Shown here: piece by piece, positions 1 to 10,890 of the stretch
Layout: each line of letters opens with the position of its first letter
How positions within the stretch are numbered: the stretch's first letter is position 1
DNA from: a virus
UHGV virus genome: UHGV-0198005
Direction: 5' to 3' (one strand)
DNA: 12,292 nt
Translations under genes and position numbers: made by a program
Notes under the pieces: model-generated
The model's input: the letters and a program-made list of their open reading frames with translations, nothing else
What the model was told of the DNA's origin: nothing
Databases searched by the model: none

Positions 1-1242
1 ATGGCGAGAAAAACACACCCATTAACCACAGTGCAGATCAAAGCAGCCAGACCAGCGCAAAAGGAGTACACCCTGCAGGACGGCGGAGGGCTTTTTCTCC
101 TGGTCAAACCGTCTGGATCAAAACTCTGGAGATTTTCCTACTACCGACCATCGGACAAAAAAAGAATATTGCTGAGTTTTGGATCGCTTGAAGATGTTTC
201 CCTGGCTGATGCCAGAAAACGCCGTAGCGAGTACAGGACGTTAATCAGTGCCGGAACTGACCCGCAGGACCACGAGAGGCAAAAAAGAGAGACAGAGGCC
301 CGAAGACAAGGGAACACGTTCGAAAATGTGGCGGCGGCATGGTACCAGGTGAAAATCAGCCAGAATCTGGCCCCCAACACGATTAAAGACATCTGGCGTT
401 CGCTGGATAAATATGTATTCCCGTTCATCGGCAACACGCCAATAGATACCCTCACCGCCCGAAGGTTCGTTGAAGTGCTTACACCCATCAAGGAGCGCGG
501 CAACCTGGAAACACTCAAGCGGGTTTTACAGCGCGTTAATGAGGTAATGGATTACGCCGCCAACAGTGGGCTGATTGATGCCAATCCGGCTATGAATGTG
601 CGTAAGGCGTTTCCCTCACCTGTAAAAAAACATATGCCAACAATCCGCCCCGAACAGCTGCCGGAGCTTATGCAGGCTTTATCAGTATCGGCAACAGAAC
701 GGCAGACCAGATTACTGATTGAATGGCAGTTACTGACCGTAACCCGTCCCGCCGAAGCGTCATCAACGCGGTGGGATGAAATCAACCTGGACGCGAAGCA
801 ATGGACGATACCTGCCGGACGCATGAAGATGCGCAGGGATCACGTTATCCCGCTTTCCGGTCAGGCTATGGCGGTGCTGGAGGCCATGAAACCAATCAGC
901 CACCACCGCAATTACGTTTTCCCAAGTCTGAAAGACCCACAGCAGCCGATGAACAGCCAGACAGCTAACGCAGCATTGCGGCGTATGGGATTCGCTGGCG
1001 TGCTGGTGTCTCATGGATTACGCGCCATATTCAGCACAGCAGCGAACGAGGAAGGATTCGAGCCGGACGTAATAGAGGCGGCACTTGCCCACGTCGACAC
1101 CAACGAAGTTAGACGGGCATACAACCGGAGCAACTACATAGAAAAACGCATCGTGCTGATGCGCTGGTGGGGCGAATTTGTCGAGGCTGCGGCGACGGGC
1201 GTAACCCTCGCCAGTGGTAAAAGGGGTATCCGAGCCGTGTAG
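1..1242 (+). CDS. int: Site-specific tyrosine recombinase, P4-type integrase
   Basis: 413-aa ORF. N-terminus MARKTHPLT...GSKLWRFSYYRP and C-terminal VSHGLR...AHVD...RRAYNRSNY align by eye with recalled E. coli CP4-57 IntA / P4 Int, including the R..H..R..Y catalytic region. Position at island edge. Confidence 0.93.
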   Translation: MARKTHPLTTVQIKAARPAQKEYTLQDGGGLFLLVKPSGSKLWRFSYYRPSDKKRILLSFGSLEDVSLADARKRRSEYRTLISAGTDPQDHERQKRETEARRQGNTFENVAAAWYQVKISQNLAPNTIKDIWRSLDKYVFPFIGNTPIDTLTARRFVEVLTPIKERGNLETLKRVLQRVNEVMDYAANSGLIDANPAMNVRKAFPSPVKKHMPTIRPEQLPELMQALSVSATERQTRLLIEWQLLTVTRPAEASSTRWDEINLDAKQWTIPAGRMKMRRDHVIPLSGQAMAVLEAMKPISHHRNYVFPSLKDPQQPMNSQTANAALRRMGFAGVLVSHGLRAIFSTAANEEGFEPDVIEAALAHVDTNEVRRAYNRSNYIEKRIVLMRWWGEFVEAAATGVTLASGKRGIRAV

Positions 1243-3918: not shown

Positions 3919-4218
3919 ATGAAACTTAAATATTCTGGCTTAACTGCCAGTGGCAACACTCACCCTAAATTTACGCGCGGCGATATTTACCGCGACCAGT
4001 ACGGCGGCACGGTAATGATTAAGGGCGTGGCGGGACGGTGCGTAACTTACCGCCGTGAAGGTTACGAATATGATTGCGTGATGCCTGTTTATCAGTTCCG
4101 GCGTGATTTTTCTCTGGTACAGACCGCGCCGCATAACGTGCCCACCAGCAACGCCAGGGCACGGGCAAACATCCAGAAGCTGAAAACCATGATTAACGGA
4201 TTCAGGGGTAAAAAATGA
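3919..4218 (+). CDS. Hypothetical protein (99 aa)
   Basis: ORF with GGAG upstream; stop overlaps the primase start (ATGA). Confidence 0.6.
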   Translation: MKLKYSGLTASGNTHPKFTRGDIYRDQYGGTVMIKGVAGRCVTYRREGYEYDCVMPVYQFRRDFSLVQTAPHNVPTSNARARANIQKLKTMINGFRGKK

Positions 4219-5969
4219 AACTGGCACCGAACGTAAAACAGCAGTCACGCGGCATAAAACACAAAGGAACAGAAGTCATTATTTTTGCGGGTAGTGATGC
4301 CTGGGCACACGCGAAACAATGGCAGGAACATGATGCGCGTATGGCCGGAGATAATGAGCCTCCTGTGTGGCTTGGGGAGCAGCAGTTATCAGAACTGGAT
4401 AAGCTGCAAATTGTGCCGGAAGGCAGAAAATCCGTGCGCATATTCAGGGCCGGATATCTTGCGCCAGTAATGATAAAGGCGATTGGTCAGAAGCTGGCGG
4501 CGGCAGGCGTACAGGATGCAAATTTTTACCCTGATGGTATGCACGGTCAGAAGGTGGAGAACTGGCGCGAATATCTGGCCCGTGAGCGCCAGAATCTTTC
4601 TGATGGTCTGGTCATTGAGCTTCCGGTAAAGCAAAAGGCGCAACTTTCGCAGATGGCGGACAGTGAGCGCGCGCAGCTGCTTGCCGATCGCTTTGATGGC
4701 GTTTGCGTACATCCTGAAAGTGAAATCGTTCACGTATGGCGCGGCGGGGTATGGTGTCCGGTCAGCACAATGGAACTTAGCCGCGAAATGGTGGCGATCT
4801 ATTCAGAGCACAGGGCCACTTTCAGCAAGCGCGTAATCAATAACGCCGTGGAAGCGTTAAAAGTTATTGCCGAACCAATGGGCGAGCCGTCCGGCGATTT
4901 GCTGCCGTTCGCCAATGGTGCGCTTGACCTGAAAACGGGGGAATTTTCCCCGCACACGCCGGAGAACTGGATCACCACGCACAACGGCATTGAGTACACG
5001 CCACCAGCACCAGGGGAGAACATCCGCGATAACGCGCCAAACTTTCATAAATGGCTTGAGCACGCAGCCGGAAAAGACCCGCGCAAGATGATGCGTATAT
5101 GTGCCGCGCTGTACATGATTATGGCGAACCGGTACGACTGGCAGATGTTTATTGAGGCCACCGGAGACGGCGGGAGCGGTAAAAGTACATTCACACACAT
5201 AGCCAGCCTTCTGGCAGGGAAACAAAACACGGTAAGCGCTGAAATGACATCGCTTGATGATGCTGGTGGGCGTGCGCAGGTTGTCGGGAGTCGTCTTATC
5301 GTCCTGGCAGACCAGCCGAAATATACAGGCGAAGGAACGGGCATCAAGAAAATCACGGGCGGCGACCCCGTGGAAATTAACCCGAAATATGAAAAGCGTT
5401 TTACGGCGGTAATCAGGGCGGTGGTGCTGGCAACCAATAACAATCCGATGATATTCACCGAACGGGCCGGAGGTGTGGCACGTCGTCGGGTGATATTCCG
5501 GTTCGATAACATCGTAAGCGAGGCAGAAAAAGACAGGGAGCTACCGGAAAAGATCGCGGCTGAAATCCCTGTCATTATCCGCCGCTTGCTGGCGAACTTT
5601 GCCGACCCTGAAAAGGCACGGGCTTTACTCATTGAACAGCGTGACGGTGATGAAGCACTGGCAATAAAGCAACAGACGGATCCGGTTATTGAGTTTTGCC
5701 AGTTCCTGAATTTTCTGGAGGAAGCACGCGGCCTGATGATGGGCGGCGGTGGCGATTCAGTGAAGTACACGACCAGAAACAGCCTTTACCGCGTCTATCT
5801 GGCGTTTATGGCGTACGCAGGCAGGAGCAAACCGCTAAACGTAAATGACTTTGGCAAGGCTATGAAGCCAGCCGCGAAAGTTTACGGACATGAATATATT
5901 ACGCGGAAAGTTAAAGGAGTAACGCAGACTAACGCAATAACAACAGACGATTGCGACGCGTTTTTATAA
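4215..5969 (+). CDS. Replication initiator: primase/helicase with phage-plasmid primase P4-family (D5_N-like) region and P-loop NTPase domain
   Basis: 584-aa ORF. Walker A GDGGSGKST (EATGDGGSGKSTFTHIASLLAG) and a putative Walker B LIVLAD; upstream NGALDLKTGEFSPHTPENWIT resembles the D5_N/primase-C motif. Immediately followed by an iteron array. Confidence 0.85.
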   Translation: MKLAPNVKQQSRGIKHKGTEVIIFAGSDAWAHAKQWQEHDARMAGDNEPPVWLGEQQLSELDKLQIVPEGRKSVRIFRAGYLAPVMIKAIGQKLAAAGVQDANFYPDGMHGQKVENWREYLARERQNLSDGLVIELPVKQKAQLSQMADSERAQLLADRFDGVCVHPESEIVHVWRGGVWCPVSTMELSREMVAIYSEHRATFSKRVINNAVEALKVIAEPMGEPSGDLLPFANGALDLKTGEFSPHTPENWITTHNGIEYTPPAPGENIRDNAPNFHKWLEHAAGKDPRKMMRICAALYMIMANRYDWQMFIEATGDGGSGKSTFTHIASLLAGKQNTVSAEMTSLDDAGGRAQVVGSRLIVLADQPKYTGEGTGIKKITGGDPVEINPKYEKRFTAVIRAVVLATNNNPMIFTERAGGVARRRVIFRFDNIVSEAEKDRELPEKIAAEIPVIIRRLLANFADPEKARALLIEQRDGDEALAIKQQTDPVIEFCQFLNFLEEARGLMMGGGGDSVKYTTRNSLYRVYLAFMAYAGRSKPLNVNDFGKAMKPAAKVYGHEYITRKVKGVTQTNAITTDDCDAFL

Positions 5970-6256: not shown

Positions 6257-6535
6257 ATGCACACTTCAGGGAAATTTAATAAATCACTCAAAAAACGCAG
6301 AGACAGAACAGAACCGAAATATCGCGCGTTAGACATGACAGAGCACGCTTTAAAGGTGGCAATCAGAACGATAGACCGACACGTAGGGGAAGGATACGCG
6401 AAGGAACATCCCGACCTGATAAGCGCATTCATGACCACAGCAGCGGCAAACTTTGCCACGCTGACAGAACGGGAGATTGCCGAAGCGGAACAGGTAACAA
6501 CCATCAACGTTAAAACCGGAGAGGTGGAATCATGA
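6257..6535 (+). CDS. Hypothetical protein (92 aa), co-transcribed with ssb
   Basis: GAGGGGG ribosome-binding site ~11 nt upstream; stop overlaps the ssb start (ATGA). Confidence 0.6.
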   Translation: MHTSGKFNKSLKKRRDRTEPKYRALDMTEHALKVAIRTIDRHVGEGYAKEHPDLISAFMTTAAANFATLTEREIAEAEQVTTINVKTGEVES

Positions 6536-6954
6536 CAGCACAGATAGCCGCTTACGGGCGGCTGGTGGACGACCCGCAGGTAAAACAGACCAGCAAGGGC
6601 ACACCGATGACGCTGGCGCGTATGGCGGTCCCCCTTCCGTGCAGCCAGGCAGATGACGGAACGGCGACGATGTGGTTATCCGTCCTGGCATTTGGCAGAC
6701 AGGCCGAAGCACTGGAAAGGCACCGCAAGGGTGAACTCCTGAGCGTGGCGGGTAACATGCAGATCAGCCAGTGGACTGGGCAGAACGGAGAAACGCGGCA
6801 GGGCTGGCAGGTTATCGCAGACAGTGTAATCAGTGCGCGAACGGCGCGACTGGGCGGCAAAAAAGGTCAACAGGGCCAGGCTACTGACGCGCTGAACAGG
6901 GCAAAACAACAGGCGGGGAATGATGATCCGTACGGGGATAACATACCGTTTTAA
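6532..6954 (+). CDS. ssb: Single-stranded DNA-binding protein (SSB) homolog
   Basis: 140-aa ORF with an OB-fold-like N-terminal region, a Gly/Gln-rich linker and an acidic C-terminal tip DDPYGDNIPF, matching the conserved SSB tail (D-D-D-I-P-F in E. coli SSB, recalled). Confidence 0.8.
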   Translation: MTAQIAAYGRLVDDPQVKQTSKGTPMTLARMAVPLPCSQADDGTATMWLSVLAFGRQAEALERHRKGELLSVAGNMQISQWTGQNGETRQGWQVIADSVISARTARLGGKKGQQGQATDALNRAKQQAGNDDPYGDNIPF

Positions 6955-7166: not shown

Positions 7167-7208
7167 TAAAAAAGCCCGATAAGGTCAGAGGTGGCTTATC
7201 GGGCTTTT
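7167..7208. terminator. Terminator-like hairpin (AGCCCGATAAG-N11-CTTATCGGGCT) flanked by an A-run and a T-run
   Basis: Perfect 11-bp stem; A6 upstream and T4 downstream make it potentially bidirectional. No adjacent CDS explains it. Confidence 0.45.
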
Positions 7209-7369: not shown

Positions 7370-7576
7370 ATGGCTGAAGAGAAAAAAGGCGGTGTTTCGG
7401 TGTACATAAGCCCCGACATCGTGAAGGCGCTCAAGGAACGCCACCAGCAGAACGTAAAAGCAGGCATTGCGGCAGGACTTGATCCGCTGGCGATGGTTGA
7501 GCCGTCAACAGGCTGGCAGGTACGCTCCTATTTACGCGCGGCGCTGGGCATAAATCAGACTCATGGGGGTGAATAA
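7370..7576 (+). CDS. Hypothetical protein (68 aa), first gene of the head operon; possibly a small RHH-like regulator or scaffold/size-determination factor
   Basis: Strong ribosome-binding site; stop overlaps the capsid gene start (TAATG). VSVYISPDIVKALKERH resembles an RHH strand-helix pattern (weak inference). Confidence 0.55.
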   Translation: MAEEKKGGVSVYISPDIVKALKERHQQNVKAGIAAGLDPLAMVEPSTGWQVRSYLRAALGINQTHGGE

Positions 7577-8631
7577 TGGCAGTCAAAGCAATGGCACTTA
7601 ACACACACCAGCTTTTCGCGTACCTGAATCGCGAGGATATTGCGGAATTTAAATTTAGTCCGCTGTTTACCGCGCTGTTTTTCCCGAACGTGGCGACATT
7701 CAACACGCAAAACATCATGCTGGATACCCTGGACATTGAAGAAGTCACCATGTCGGCGTTTTGTTCGCCTATGGTGGGTAGCCAGGTTCAGCGCGATAAA
7801 GGGTACGAAACCAGCACGATTAAACCTGGCTACATGAAGCCAAAGCACGAAATCGATCCAACGAAAACCATCATGCGCATGGCTGGAGAAGATCCGGCAC
7901 AGCTTAACGACCCTACCTATCGCCGTATGCGCCTGATTACTGGCAATATGCGCCGCCAGATAAACGCCATAAAAGCGCGCGTGGAATGGCTGGCGGTAAA
8001 TGCGGTAACGACCGGAAAAAACATCATTGAGGGCGAAGGCATAGAGCGCTATGAAATCGACTGGAAGATACCGGAAAAAAACATCATAGAGCAGGCCGAC
8101 GGGAAAAAATGGTCAGAGCAGGACAAAGAAACCCACGATCCAATCTATGATATCGAACTATACGCCGATCAGGCTGGTTGCCCCGCAAACGTCATGATTA
8201 TGGGCGTTGAGGTATGGCGAACGTTACGCAGCTTTAAAAAATTCCGTGAGCTGTACGATCTTTCCCGTGGTTCAGAGTCCGCCGCAGAGCTGGCCTGTAA
8301 AAACCTGGGCGAAGTGGTGAGCTTTAAAGGCTATCTGGGCGATATTGCCCTTATCGTCTATTCCGGCAAATACACTGACAGCGACGGCACAGAAAAATAT
8401 TTCCTTGATCCTGATTTGCTGGTCCTGGGCAACACCAACAACAAAGGGCTGGTGGCCTATGGTGCGATTATGGATCAGGAAGCGGTAAGAACAGGCGCAA
8501 CGCAAAACATGTACTACCCGAAAAACTGGATTGAGGACGGCGATCCGGCGATTGAGTACGTGCAGACGCACAGCGCACCGCAGCCGGTTCCGGCAGATAT
8601 TCGCAAATTTGTTACCGTCAAAATTGCTTAA
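7576..8631 (+). CDS. Major capsid protein, lambda gpE-like (HK97 fold)
   Basis: 351-aa ORF aligning along its length with recalled lambda gpE: FKFSPLFTALFF / FKFDPLFLRLFF; PGYMKPKHEIDP / PGYVKPKHEVNP; EDPAQLNDPTYRRMR / EDPQNLADPAYRRRR; RGSESAAELACKNLGEVVSFKGYLGDIALIVYSGKY / RGSNSELETAVKDLGKAVSYKGMYGDVAIVVYSGQY; YYPKNW..GDPA...SAP. Confidence 0.92.
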   Translation: MAVKAMALNTHQLFAYLNREDIAEFKFSPLFTALFFPNVATFNTQNIMLDTLDIEEVTMSAFCSPMVGSQVQRDKGYETSTIKPGYMKPKHEIDPTKTIMRMAGEDPAQLNDPTYRRMRLITGNMRRQINAIKARVEWLAVNAVTTGKNIIEGEGIERYEIDWKIPEKNIIEQADGKKWSEQDKETHDPIYDIELYADQAGCPANVMIMGVEVWRTLRSFKKFRELYDLSRGSESAAELACKNLGEVVSFKGYLGDIALIVYSGKYTDSDGTEKYFLDPDLLVLGNTNNKGLVAYGAIMDQEAVRTGATQNMYYPKNWIEDGDPAIEYVQTHSAPQPVPADIRKFVTVKIA

Positions 8632-8642
8632 CGGGGGATTCT

Positions 8643-8978
8643 ATGGACACTCCATACATTGAGTTATTTGCAGGCAGTCAGCAGGTATCCACGACGCTGG
8701 TACATTTTGCCGCTGATGCTGGCGTTATTCAGGAATTTACCCCGCTGATGCTGGCGGACAATGGCGAGTTTAAGCCGTGGGATGGTCAGGAATCTGGCAA
8801 GGCTGTTTATCTGACTTCGTACCTCGTGGACACGTCAAAGCAGAAATCAGCACAGTGTTACAAGACGGGGATATTCAATATTGCCGCCGTTAACTGGCCT
8901 GAGAGCGTCGACACCGATGCGAAAAAATGCGCCGCCTTTGCGGGTTCTGGCGTATCCGTTCAGCCGCTGGCCCGATAA
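8643..8978 (+). CDS. Head decoration protein, lambda gpD-like
   Basis: 111-aa ORF with TPLML, WDG, YKTGIFN...WPE and KKCAAFAGSGVSV matching recalled lambda gpD (TPLML..WDG..YKSGTF..WPE..KKRTAFAGTAISIV); similar length (~110 aa). Confidence 0.85.
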   Translation: MDTPYIELFAGSQQVSTTLVHFAADAGVIQEFTPLMLADNGEFKPWDGQESGKAVYLTSYLVDTSKQKSAQCYKTGIFNIAAVNWPESVDTDAKKCAAFAGSGVSVQPLAR

Positions 8979-8990
8979 GCAGGGGGAACG

Positions 8991-9404
8991 ATGGCAACGA
9001 ATGAAAGCATCATGGCGCTACCGCTGGCGAGTAAATTTAAAGCCGAAGCGCGGGCAATGGCTGACAGAGGTTTATCAACCTACGAGGCCGTATATCAACT
9101 CAACAAACTGGAAGAGCAGGACAAGCCGCGCGCTGATGCGATTATGGCGCTTCATGAGCATAAAGACTATCAGCCGCTGTTGCGTGCAATGGCAAACGTG
9201 CCTTGTATCGATGTTGATACGGCTAAAAACATCCTGAACATGACCATAGAGCAGGAACGCCCGAAGGTTGCACCAGAGCTTACCGCAGCCTTTGAAAACT
9301 TTATGGACATGCACAGCCCACAAACCGTATCAGCTGGCATGGCATACGATGGCAGAAACCCAGGCGATGACGGCGACATCGATCGCATACTGAAAACCAT
9401 CTGA
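8991..9404 (+). CDS. Hypothetical protein (137 aa), last gene of the head operon; lambda gpFI-like position and size but no visible similarity
   Basis: ORF with GGGGGA ribosome-binding site, followed by a terminator and the cos site. Functional guess is positional only. Confidence 0.6.
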   Translation: MATNESIMALPLASKFKAEARAMADRGLSTYEAVYQLNKLEEQDKPRADAIMALHEHKDYQPLLRAMANVPCIDVDTAKNILNMTIEQERPKVAPELTAAFENFMDMHSPQTVSAGMAYDGRNPGDDGDIDRILKTI

Positions 9405-9409
9405 GACAA

Positions 9410-9431
9410 GGCCGGAGAAATCCGGCTTTTT
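9410..9431 (+). terminator. Rho-independent terminator (GCCGGA-GAAA-TCCGGC + T6) abutting cosQ
   Basis: Stem-loop plus T-run directly after the 8991-9404 stop. Confidence 0.65.
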
Positions 9432-9432
9432 T

Positions 9433-9609
9433 GCGGGTCCTTCCTGGAATTATGGCCCGTTACGGGGCGGCGACCTCGCGGTTTTTCGCTATTTATGAGC
9501 TTTTTCAGGGGGGTGGTGGTGGTTTTGTTGTTTGCTCTATCTTTATGAATGAAAAGGGAAAGATGCAAACAATACACCAACCTGAAGCAGTAATTAAGTT
9601 GGTGTATTA
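9433..9609 (+). other. Lambda-type cohesive end site cos1 (cosQ-cosN-cosB); cosN 12-nt overhang GGGCGGCGACCT at 9465-9476; cosB diverged from lambda
   Basis: TTACGGGGCGGCGACCTCGCGGTTTTTCGCTATTTATGA matches the recalled lambda cos junction (ACGGGGCGGCGACCTCGCGGGTTTTCGCTATTTATGAAAA) almost base for base, then diverges. Lies directly upstream of the Nu1-like gene as in lambda. Confidence 0.8.
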
Positions 9610-10152
9610 ATGAAATCGCACCTGATGAACAAAAAAAACATGGCGAAAAGCTGCCGTGTAAGTGCGACAGCGTTCGACAAGTGGGGAGTGACTCCCGTTG
9701 AACGTAAAGGCCGTGAGGCGTTTTACGATGTTGCCAGCGTGATAGACAATAGGGTTAACAATGCAATTAGCCAGCTTACAAACGACAAAGGCGATATTGA
9801 TGATGATGAACTCTTACGAGTCAGGATCAGATTACTGACAGCACAGGCGGAGGCGCAGGAACTTAAAAACGAGCGCGATCGCGGTGACGTGATTGATACT
9901 GAGTTTTGCCTGTACGCGCTTTCAAAGCTGGCGAGTCAGATTTCATCAATCATGGACAGCCTCCCGCTTACTATGCAAAGGAGCTTCCCACAGATTACCC
10001 CCGCCATGCTGGATAGGCTTAAAAGGGAAGTGGTTAAAGCCTGTAATGCCAGTGCCAGAGTTGCCGACAACCTCCCACAGATACTGGCTGATTACTTGAA
10101 AGAAACAACCGGAAACGTACCGGAAAAGTTGCTACAGAAGAAAGGCGAGTAA
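9610..10152 (+). CDS. Terminase small subunit homolog, lambda Nu1-like (candidate Rpp-type packaging-redirection protein); true start may be the ATG at 9625
   Basis: LTAQAEAQELKNERDRGDVIDTEFCLYALSKLASQISSIMDSLPLTMQRSFPQ aligns with recalled lambda Nu1 LTRAQADAQELKNARDSAEVVETAFCTFVLSRIAGEIASILDGLPLSVQRRFPE; N-terminus MNKKNMAKS.. parallels Nu1 MEVNKKQLADIF. No large-terminase gene follows. Confidence 0.85.
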   Translation: MKSHLMNKKNMAKSCRVSATAFDKWGVTPVERKGREAFYDVASVIDNRVNNAISQLTNDKGDIDDDELLRVRIRLLTAQAEAQELKNERDRGDVIDTEFCLYALSKLASQISSIMDSLPLTMQRSFPQITPAMLDRLKREVVKACNASARVADNLPQILADYLKETTGNVPEKLLQKKGE

Positions 10153-10159
10153 CAGACGC

Positions 10160-10375
10160 GCAATTATTGAACAAAACTGAGAAACGACATGAAAGCGTCA
10201 TAAATCGCCATTTTAGATGATTACCGTGTCGTTTCTTTTTATTGTGTATCTATTTAAAAACAAATAGTTATGTTCGAGAAGTACCGACATGCTTTTTCCA
10301 GAAAAATTTTCATAAACAGATAAAAACCGCGAGGTCGCCGCCCCGTAACGGGTCCATAATTCCAGGAAGGACCCG
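10160..10375 (-). other. Second lambda-type cos site (cos2) in inverted orientation; cosN at 10332-10343 on the minus strand, with lambda-like cosB elements (R-site-like GAAACGACA / TGTCGTTTC, TTTATGAAAATTTT)
   Basis: Reverse complement of 10322-10375 is CGGGTCCTTCCTGGAATTATGGACCCGTTACGGGGCGGCGACCTCGCGGTTTTT, identical to cos1 apart from one indel. Continuing on the minus strand, TTTATGAAAATTTTTCTGG, CATAACTATTTGTTTTTAAATAGA and AAAGAAACGACAC...TGTCGTTTCTC parallel recalled lambda cosB (R3/I1/R2/R1 region). Confidence 0.7.
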
Positions 10376-10408: not shown

Positions 10409-10582
10409 ATGACAGAAGCCGAAATACTGGGATTAATCCGCCGTGCTGGTGGAATCAGCCAGCAGACTGACGAACAGGCCACGCAGCCGGACAGCGTGAC
10501 AGCCGAAAATTATGCGCGTGTTGTTGCTGAGGTGATGCGCCGTGATGGTATCCAGCTTAATGATGTGGATATGCGTTCTTGA
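10409..10582 (+). CDS. Hypothetical small ORF (57 aa), weakly supported
   Basis: ATG-initiated ORF below the ORF-track size cutoff with only a weak GGTG upstream; acidic, helical composition. May be a remnant. Confidence 0.25.
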   Translation: MTEAEILGLIRRAGGISQQTDEQATQPDSVTAENYARVVAEVMRRDGIQLNDVDMRS

Positions 10583-10664
10583 AATGCTGGCCTACAATCG
10601 CCGCGTGGCACTGTATCGGGAAACGGAGAAAATTACATACCACTGGAAGAAGCCGGAGCGGTTG

Positions 10665-10890
10665 CGGCGGTAACTGGTTGATATTTTCGAAATTCGCCAG
10701 CGGCGAACATCGGGGAAACCAGCCTAACCCGTTGATATTTTCGGGAACCTCAAATTGAGGAGGTCGGAAACATAACCCGTCATATTCTGGATGCTGATAA
10801 TTACCACGCAGCCCATTAAGGCCTAACCCGTTGATTCTTTCGGAAACAGCCATTGGCGTAATCCGGCGCGGTAACTTGCTGAACTTAAAG
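10665..10890. repeat. Degenerate ~50-bp tandem repeat array (about 5 units), each unit starting TAAC(C/T)(C/G)GTTGATATTTTCG-like
   Basis: Unit starts at ~10669 (TAACTGGTTGATATTTTCG), 10724 (TAACCCGTTGATATTTTCG), 10774 (TAACCCGTCATATTCTGG), 10825 (TAACCCGTTGATTCTTTCG), 10871 (TAACTTGCTGAACTTAAAG); spacing 46-55 bp. Confidence 0.5.

Follow-up and report, generated by a model that had tools for sequence, protein, structure and literature searches.

The known organization of cosB follows the rule R3-I1-R2-R1, in which R2 is oriented opposite to the other elements, as reviewed by Murialdo and Feiss (PMC9026076). In lambda, R3 lies at bp 53-65 (plus strand), R2 at bp 108-120 (minus strand), and R1 at bp 155-166 (plus strand), with R2 and R1 forming an inverted repeat. 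In N15, R3 is GAGGTTGTTGTT (bp 48-59), and scrambling its GTTGTT core cut the yield about 100-fold (PMC4669245). The tripartite cosB, its R2/R1 inverted repeat, and G/T-rich R elements of the N15 type are all established in this literature (PMC9026076, PMC4669245). Among phage satellites, the model is EcCICFT073, an island with two cos sites and with genes for capsid and decoration proteins (PMC6092414, PMC6739421), and the cosB of Rpp-type phage-inducible chromosomal islands (PICIs) has been reported to be without repeated R sequences, with a single R3 proposed at bp 48-65 (PMC9026076). PICIs of Escherichia coli that encode their own small terminase (TerS) have been mentioned and not analyzed, and the islands of strains IHE3034 and 18098 were not mobilized by resident prophages (PMC6092414). 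Here, we describe the 12,292-nt virus genome UHGV-0198005 (hereafter the window), a PICI-type phage satellite with two cos sites, and an 11-bp inverted repeat that lies between the first of them (cos1) and an adjacent terS-like gene. We read this repeat as an R2/R1-type pair of candidate TerS-binding elements within a lambda-style cosB that would belong to the satellite and not to its helper, a reading to which we give about an even chance of being correct.

The initial annotation had described a perfect 11-bp inverted repeat with a 16-nt spacer abutting the ATG of the terS-like gene, and this description was confirmed: the left arm, AATACACCAAC (9571-9581), and the right arm, GTTGGTGTATT (9598-9608), are complementary at 11 of 11 nucleotides (100%). 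The repeat cannot be extended in either direction, the outer pair being C at 9570 and A at 9609 and the inner pair C at 9582 and A at 9597. The 16-nt spacer or loop between the arms (9582-9597) is a variable block in the alignment introduced below. The right arm stops at 9608, so that a single base (9609) precedes the ATG (9610-9612) of a 180-codon open reading frame (ORF). On the scale of the whole window, such a repeat is only mildly unusual, because 0.126 perfect inverted repeats (11 bp or longer, loop of 3-40 nt) are expected from dinucleotide shuffles of all 12.3 kb, and 9.5% of the shuffles hold at least one. In a local comparison limited to the segment that follows the left arm, an inverted copy matching at 11 of 12 positions has a P of about 0.001.

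The repeat is part of a larger arrangement at cos1, which we number here with position 9465, the start of cosN1, as bp 1. The cosN1 sequence itself (9465-9476, plus strand) is GGGCGGCGACCT, a 12-nt lambda-type cohesive-end sequence identical to bp 1-12 of lambda. It is followed by a cosN-proximal block, CGCTATTTATGAG (9487-9499, plus strand), that is invariant at 13 of 13 columns among 17 aligned relatives, which comprise 12 relatives from E. coli (80-100% identical in the aligned stretch) and five islands from Enterobacter, Citrobacter, Kosakonia, and Superficieibacter, whose TerS proteins are 54-59% identical. Three related G/T-rich elements then follow, the middle one inverted relative to the outer two. 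The R3-like element, GGTGGTGGTGGTTTTGTTGTTTGC (9512-9535, bp 48-71, plus strand), contains GTTGTT and is invariant at 16 of 22 columns across five genera. An A+T-rich spacer (9536-9564, 72% A+T) occupies the position of lambda I1. The R2-like element (9565-9586, bp 101-122, minus strand), which reads CAGGTTGGTGTATTGTTTGC on the minus strand from 9567 to 9586, includes the left arm as its core. The R1-like element (bp 134-144, plus strand) is the right arm itself, overlapping the ribosome-binding region with its Shine-Dalgarno (SD)-like GGTG at 9601-9604. The R3-like sequence at 9518-9535 (plus strand) matches the R2-like sequence at 9565-9582 (minus strand) at 14 of 18 positions (P about 0.001-0.008 in local shuffles), and the R2- and R1-like elements, matching at 11 of 11, are closer to each other than either is to the R3-like element. 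This tripartite layout is complete only in the window's clade, with the third copy degenerate or absent in relatives.

The resemblance to lambda lies in the plan of the site. Both cosB segments stand directly to the right of the same 12-nt cosN, consist of three related elements with the middle one inverted, and are followed by a gene of the Nu1 family; the positions of R3 and R2 are nearly equal in the two, and in both R2 and R1 form an inverted repeat and resemble each other more than they do R3. The element sequences differ, those of the window being unrelated to the lambda CGTTTCC core. No match to the consensus of integration host factor (IHF), WATCAANNNNTTR, was found at two or fewer mismatches in the spacer (9536-9564), whereas lambda I1 matches it at one to two mismatches; a scan of cosB1 gave no IHF consensus either. 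The R1-like element abuts the start codon, while lambda R1 lies about 25 bp upstream of it, and the arms are shorter (11 bp against 16 bp) and closer together (27 bp against 47 bp from center to center). Also unlike lambda, the terS-like gene is not followed by terL, which makes the satellite helper-dependent.

The gene beside the site (9610-10152, plus strand) encodes a 180-aa protein that is a full-length small terminase of the Nu1/N15 family. It matched Pfam family PF07471 (Phage_Nu1) over residues 33-148 with 83 bits against a cut-off of 30, and PHROG 57 over residues 1-174 with an E-value of 3e-53. Similarity to lambda Nu1 (35% identity over residues 6-166, E = 2e-34) covers the C-terminal part, a part that is found in lambda Nu1 and absent from Rpp proteins (PMC9026076). 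The start at 9610 is backed by the motif MxxHL[LM]NKK, which is kept in homologues down to 57% identity, and residues 1-55 are nearly invariant among the E. coli relatives, across all right-arm haplotypes. A predicted structure of low confidence (predicted local distance difference test score, pLDDT, 61) places a helix at residues 8-14, a second at 21-25, a beta-hairpin at 31-40, and a third helix at 41-54, which is the order of a winged helix. The best matches in a fold search with this model were winged helices of the MerR type, and these were not significant (E >= 0.1); a sequence search of the solved Nu1 and RppC domains with TerS gave no match.

The closest phage protein is N15 gp1, at 46% identity, and the two have AFDKWGVxPVExxGRE in common in the region of the recognition helix and wing; among the phage records searched with TerS, none was more than 60% identical. 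The likeness to N15 extends to the R elements, which are G/T-rich with a GTTGTT core in both. The recognition helix differs in part, reading VSATAFDKW in the window and ISVQAFDKW in N15, and N15 has a single R3 and a remote rR2. A group of phages called 'Monarch' by the Feiss laboratory is said to combine an N15-type recognition helix with a tripartite cosB.

Comparison among the relatives separates the two arms. A single-protein scan of representative genomes found nothing, and when run again with an alignment it gave only six loci. The left arm is invariant at 7 of 11 columns over Escherichia, Enterobacter, Citrobacter, Kosakonia, and Superficieibacter, and at 10 of 11 within E. coli. Its start is fixed at bp 106 from cosN in all of these genera, whereas the ATG follows cosN at a distance of 145, 148, or 150, and its position is therefore tied to cosN, not to the start codon. 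From cosN to the left arm, the loci align without gaps except for a 3-nt deletion in two of them, and the R3-like block and the left arm form conserved islands of the intergenic region.

The right arm has no invariant column (0 of 11) and the highest entropy of all blocks, within E. coli too. Its haplotypes are GTTGGTGTATT, which makes the perfect repeat, GTGGGGATATT, GTTGTGGTATC, GTGGGTATATT, GTGGGGGTATT, and GTTGGGATATT. Compared with the inverted left arm, the right arm matches at 11 of 12 positions in the window, at 7-9 of 12 in the other E. coli haplotypes at the same place, and at 5-6 of 12 in other genera, which is the level of chance; there, a canonical SD (AGAGGTG or AGAGGA) stands where the right arm would be. 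Of 655 E. coli genomes with the region, 472 (many of them clonal O157) contain the repeat in perfect form and 183 in broken forms; in IMG/VR, the perfect repeat is present at 31 of 96 loci. We also looked among IMG/VR contigs for ends at cos1 as evidence of packaging and found none that was informative, most of the contigs being prophage predictions from isolate genomes.

The suggestion in the initial annotation that the repeat is the R-site equivalent of a diverged cosB survives in part. It is supported by the layout, including the R2/R1 positions and orientations, the R3-like third copy, and the adjacent TerS. The palindrome as a unit is not a conserved recognition element, as only the left arm is constrained and the right arm varies freely. 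On the best reading, the left arm behaves as a cos-recognition element and would be the essential member of the pair; it is a candidate for this role because it is conserved, fixed relative to cosN, inverted with respect to the R3-like element, and located beside a matching TerS gene. The right arm, we infer, is an accessory third copy whose perfect form is confined to this E. coli clade. Provided that TerS recognizes the left arm, it would also bind the identical sequence that lies 27 bp from it in this clade, giving an R2/R1-type pair. The perfect form of the third copy is dispensable, because relatives lack it.

In the corresponding model, the winged-helix N-terminal domain of the satellite TerS would read the elements, its recognition region (...SATAFDKWGVTPVERKGREAFYDV) being close to that of the N15 TerS. 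A TerS dimer would span the A+T-rich spacer, docked on the R3-like and R2-like elements, and the conserved C-terminal half of the protein would recruit the helper's large terminase (TerL), leading to a nick at cosN1 and packaging of the satellite DNA. A transcript crossing cos1 would in addition fold into a hairpin of -14.5 kcal/mol that should lower terS translation, as the right arm overlaps the ribosome-binding site. We regard such SD occlusion as a probable clade-specific consequence of the sequence and not the reason for it, because a selected hairpin does not agree with the pattern of conservation described below.

Several observations weigh against the R2/R1-type pair. The right arm varies more than any other block, with five or six haplotypes facing the same unchanged DNA-binding domain, and other genera have no third copy, so a perfect R1-like copy is not required. 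There is no IHF consensus between the R3-like and R2-like elements, although a spacer with 72% A+T may be bent by other means. The elements are G/T-rich and partly periodic at 3 nt, which leaves their alignment to each other and to N15 R3 ambiguous by a few bases, and the distance from cosN to the GTTGTT core exceeds that in N15 by about 9 bp. The arm centers, 27 bp or about 2.6 helical turns apart, are a misfit with one dimer on a simple palindrome. Finally, the TerS model has the low pLDDT given above, and its MerR-type winged-helix matches fall short of significance.

Among the alternatives, the strength of the RNA fold raises the question of whether the repeat is a selected translational attenuator, in which the stem buries the SD-like GGUG and the pre-AUG base and keeps TerS low. 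The initial annotation had likewise proposed an mRNA hairpin occluding initiation, which is physically plausible in the window's clade, where these same bases lie in the stem. The RNA of the repeat region folds at -14.5 kcal/mol (z = -4.3), a value equalled by 0 of 200 shuffles and persisting in longer RNA contexts, and the region from -14 to +3 is 28% unpaired in the window against 40-70% in relatives. The block might be relieved by ribosomes on a 21-codon upstream ORF (9545-9610), the stop codon of which overlaps the terS start as UAAUG. This ORF, which begins with an ATG at 9545, encodes MNEKGKMQTIHQPEAVIKLVY, and ends as TAATG over the terS start, is open in 12 of 12 E. coli rows of the alignment, overlapping the start codon as TAATG, TGATG, or ATGA; it lacks an SD, and other genera do not have it. 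We considered this ORF as the cause of left-arm conservation and rejected it, as the left arm is conserved in genera without the ORF. The hairpin itself is not conserved. The alignment holds no compensatory pairs (0), 65% of its cells are paired, which is the shuffle level (393 of 500 shuffles were as high), and 9 of the 11 stem pairs depart only by breaking. Within the perfect-repeat clade, no covariation was found in the arms, the 472 genomes varying at one position that lies outside the repeat. The strong fold is confined to the window's clade; values of -3 to -8 kcal/mol (z near 0) were obtained for the other E. coli haplotypes, and in other genera the hairpin does not form and the canonical SD is open. 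The anchoring of the left arm to cosN and not to the ATG also argues against an attenuator, as does the lack of any sigma-70 promoter-like site between the terminator-like hairpin at 9408-9434 and the terS-like gene. A search of Rfam matched no family, giving only a chance miRNA-shaped match far below threshold. A selected attenuator is in our view unlikely. Still more doubtful is a dual role in this clade, in which the right arm would be both a new R1-type TerS site on the DNA and an anti-SD hairpin partner gating terS on the mRNA; on this rather improbable account, the hairpin would possibly be opened by the small upstream ORF ending in UAAUG, and a single template switch would have placed a copy of the conserved R2-like element in the ribosome-binding site and so created the right arm.

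A serious rival, which we nonetheless think has the smaller share of the probability, is that the perfect complementarity was not selected for any function. The left arm would be conserved for its own reason and the right arm would be a G/T-rich ribosome-binding region, inherently complementary to the CACC of the left arm and perfected by drift or by a single quasi-palindrome template switch, a known mutational mechanism in E. coli. The variation in the right arm, besides making it the block of highest entropy, is clustered in four to five adjacent central bases, and the perfect haplotype is at least two to three clustered changes away from every other sampled haplotype, the others being joined by single steps. 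The SD of other genera (GAGGTG, AAGGTGGG) has only a short, shifting complementarity to CACC(C)AC. Set against a neutral origin, all E. coli haplotypes match the inverted left arm at 7-9 of 12 positions at the same place (P 0.003-0.06), and since this match is kept in all of them, an inverted copy, beyond a mere SD, was present in the common ancestor. The perfect form is also widespread by the counts given above (of which that of 472 among 655 genomes is inflated by clonal O157 sampling), and an identical copy 27 bp from a left arm that TerS reads would be bound too. A further proposal, that the repeat is the palindromic operator of some other dimeric regulator, such as an AlpA-like protein, the 137-aa protein encoded upstream, or a host factor, seems very improbable to us. 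Perfect palindromes beside start codons are typical operators, and some relatives have a gene for an AlpA-family protein directly upstream of cos1. However, the right-arm haplotypes do not track which kind of gene lies upstream, helix-turn-helix dimers do not typically have half-sites whose centers are 27 bp apart, conservation is limited to one of the two half-sites, and no promoter was found there to regulate. We therefore retain the R2/R1-type pair of TerS sites as the favored explanation, with the left arm as its constrained member.

The satellite context of cos1 is close to that of EcCICFT073, with which the window shares its island architecture and gene order, two cos sites, and an inverted cos2, as well as an island-specific cosB beside an island-encoded winged-helix protein, which in EcCICFT073 redirects helper packaging (PMC6739421, PMC6092414). 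The difference lies in that protein. RppA, a different protein of 144 aa, is encoded in CFT073 (L010:2660-3094, in our locus numbering) at the exact position of the window's Nu1-like gene, and the two sequences are unrelated. An identity of the Nu1-like gene product as an Rpp protein was rejected, as it gave E = 1.4 against RppA in BLASTP and no match to the RppC structure 6HLK, which RppA itself matches at 5e-31. Unlike the proteins of Rpp-type PICIs, that of the window is a full-length TerS including the C-terminal part that they lack, and its cosB has three R-like elements where the Rpp-type cosB was reported to have no repeats. Similarity between the cos1 sites of the window and EcCICFT073 runs through the cosN-proximal block, CGCTATTTATGA, and then breaks off; because it breaks just after this block, cosB and the gene of its reader beside it are swapped as one cassette. 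We also observed a (GGT)n run on the top strand of the window at 9512-9522 and its reverse complement, (ACC)n, at a similar distance from cosN in EcCICFT073 (L010:2611-2623), where it falls in the segment proposed as R3-PICI by Murialdo and Feiss. The TerS-encoding pac-type Staphylococcus aureus pathogenicity islands are comparable in using the satellite's own small terminase with the helper's large terminase to select their own DNA (PMC6092414); they differ in being headful (pac) systems with an unrelated TerS family, whereas the window has a cos site with lambda-type cohesive ends.

The second cos site of the window (10150-10343, minus strand), with an inverted cosN2 at 10332-10343, has a phage-type cosB that closely resembles that of phage PhiR5_1. 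Its R2 and R1 cores, AGAAACGACA (10227-10236) and TGTCGTTTCT (10180-10189), resemble the lambda CGTTTC core, and an IHF-like sequence, AAACAAATAGTTA, is present at 10258-10270. With a cosB of the phage type at cos2, the window contains the R plan two times, each time built from different element sequences, and the island combines one satellite-specific cos site with one helper-type cos site. In the cos2 of EcCICFT073 (L010:3150-3300, minus strand), we noted three R-element-like copies of ATGTCCGGTT/AACCGGACAT downstream of cosN; published work reported no phage cosB there.

The remainder of the window follows the order of such islands. It begins with an integrase (1-1242), followed by a D5-type primase (4215-5969), a single-stranded DNA-binding protein (SSB; 6532-6954), a gpE-like capsid protein (7576-8631), a gpD-like decoration protein (8643-8978), and a 137-aa ORF (8991-9404). 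Between the SSB gene and the capsid operon there is a terminator-like perfect inverted repeat of 14 bp (7170-7208), and a further perfect inverted repeat of 11 bp is found at 7778-7833, within the capsid gene. The intrinsic-terminator-like hairpin at 9408-9434 (plus strand; GGCCGGA-GAAA-TCCGGC followed by T6), 3' of the 137-aa ORF and just upstream of cos1, was missed by a simple terminator scan and seen from its inverted repeat and sequence; it is missing in relatives with an AlpA-like gene of 127 aa upstream of cos1. Downstream of the terS-like gene are cos2 and a 93-aa gene, and no terL, which is the layout expected for a satellite borrowing TerL from its helper.

Up to position 10575, the window is 100% identical to an island of E. 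coli Nissle 1917 that adjoins tRNA-Pro and yejM, and the stretch from 9400 to 10200 is also 100% identical in ATCC 25922. After 10575 there is an indel, by which the 93-aa gene of phrog_1561 (10409-10690) is shortened to 57 codons, so the window either comes from a variant strain or carries a frameshift. Many relatives (L012-L018, L002, and L006 of our collection) sit inside the major capsid (E) or portal gene of a lambdoid prophage, as do the helper-embedded satellites described in bioRxiv 10.1101/2022.07.18.500453, while the window's copy is at tRNA-Pro. The region was found in 655 of 5,426 complete E. coli genomes, including those of Nissle 1917, ATCC 25922, and O157:H7.

Rpp is the only packaging mechanism that has been worked out for cos-type Gram-negative PICIs. 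The locus described here may represent a second solution at the same position of the backbone, with a complete N15-like TerS and its own three-element cosB, and a helper-type cos2 nearby. What appears to be new is a satellite with a lambda-style, N15-flavored cosB for its own TerS. The coordinates of the elements are direct targets for cos-plasmid transfer and gel-shift work, and the natural haplotypes of the right arm provide an allelic series for the contribution of the third R element. Should the dual role of the right arm be true, the series from two elements in other genera, through a degenerate third in other E. coli, to a perfect third in the window's clade would show how a tripartite cosB gets built, a question left open by the lambda packaging literature. 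As the region is present in about 12% of complete E. coli genomes, its packaging specificity bears on gene transfer in widely used and worrisome strains.

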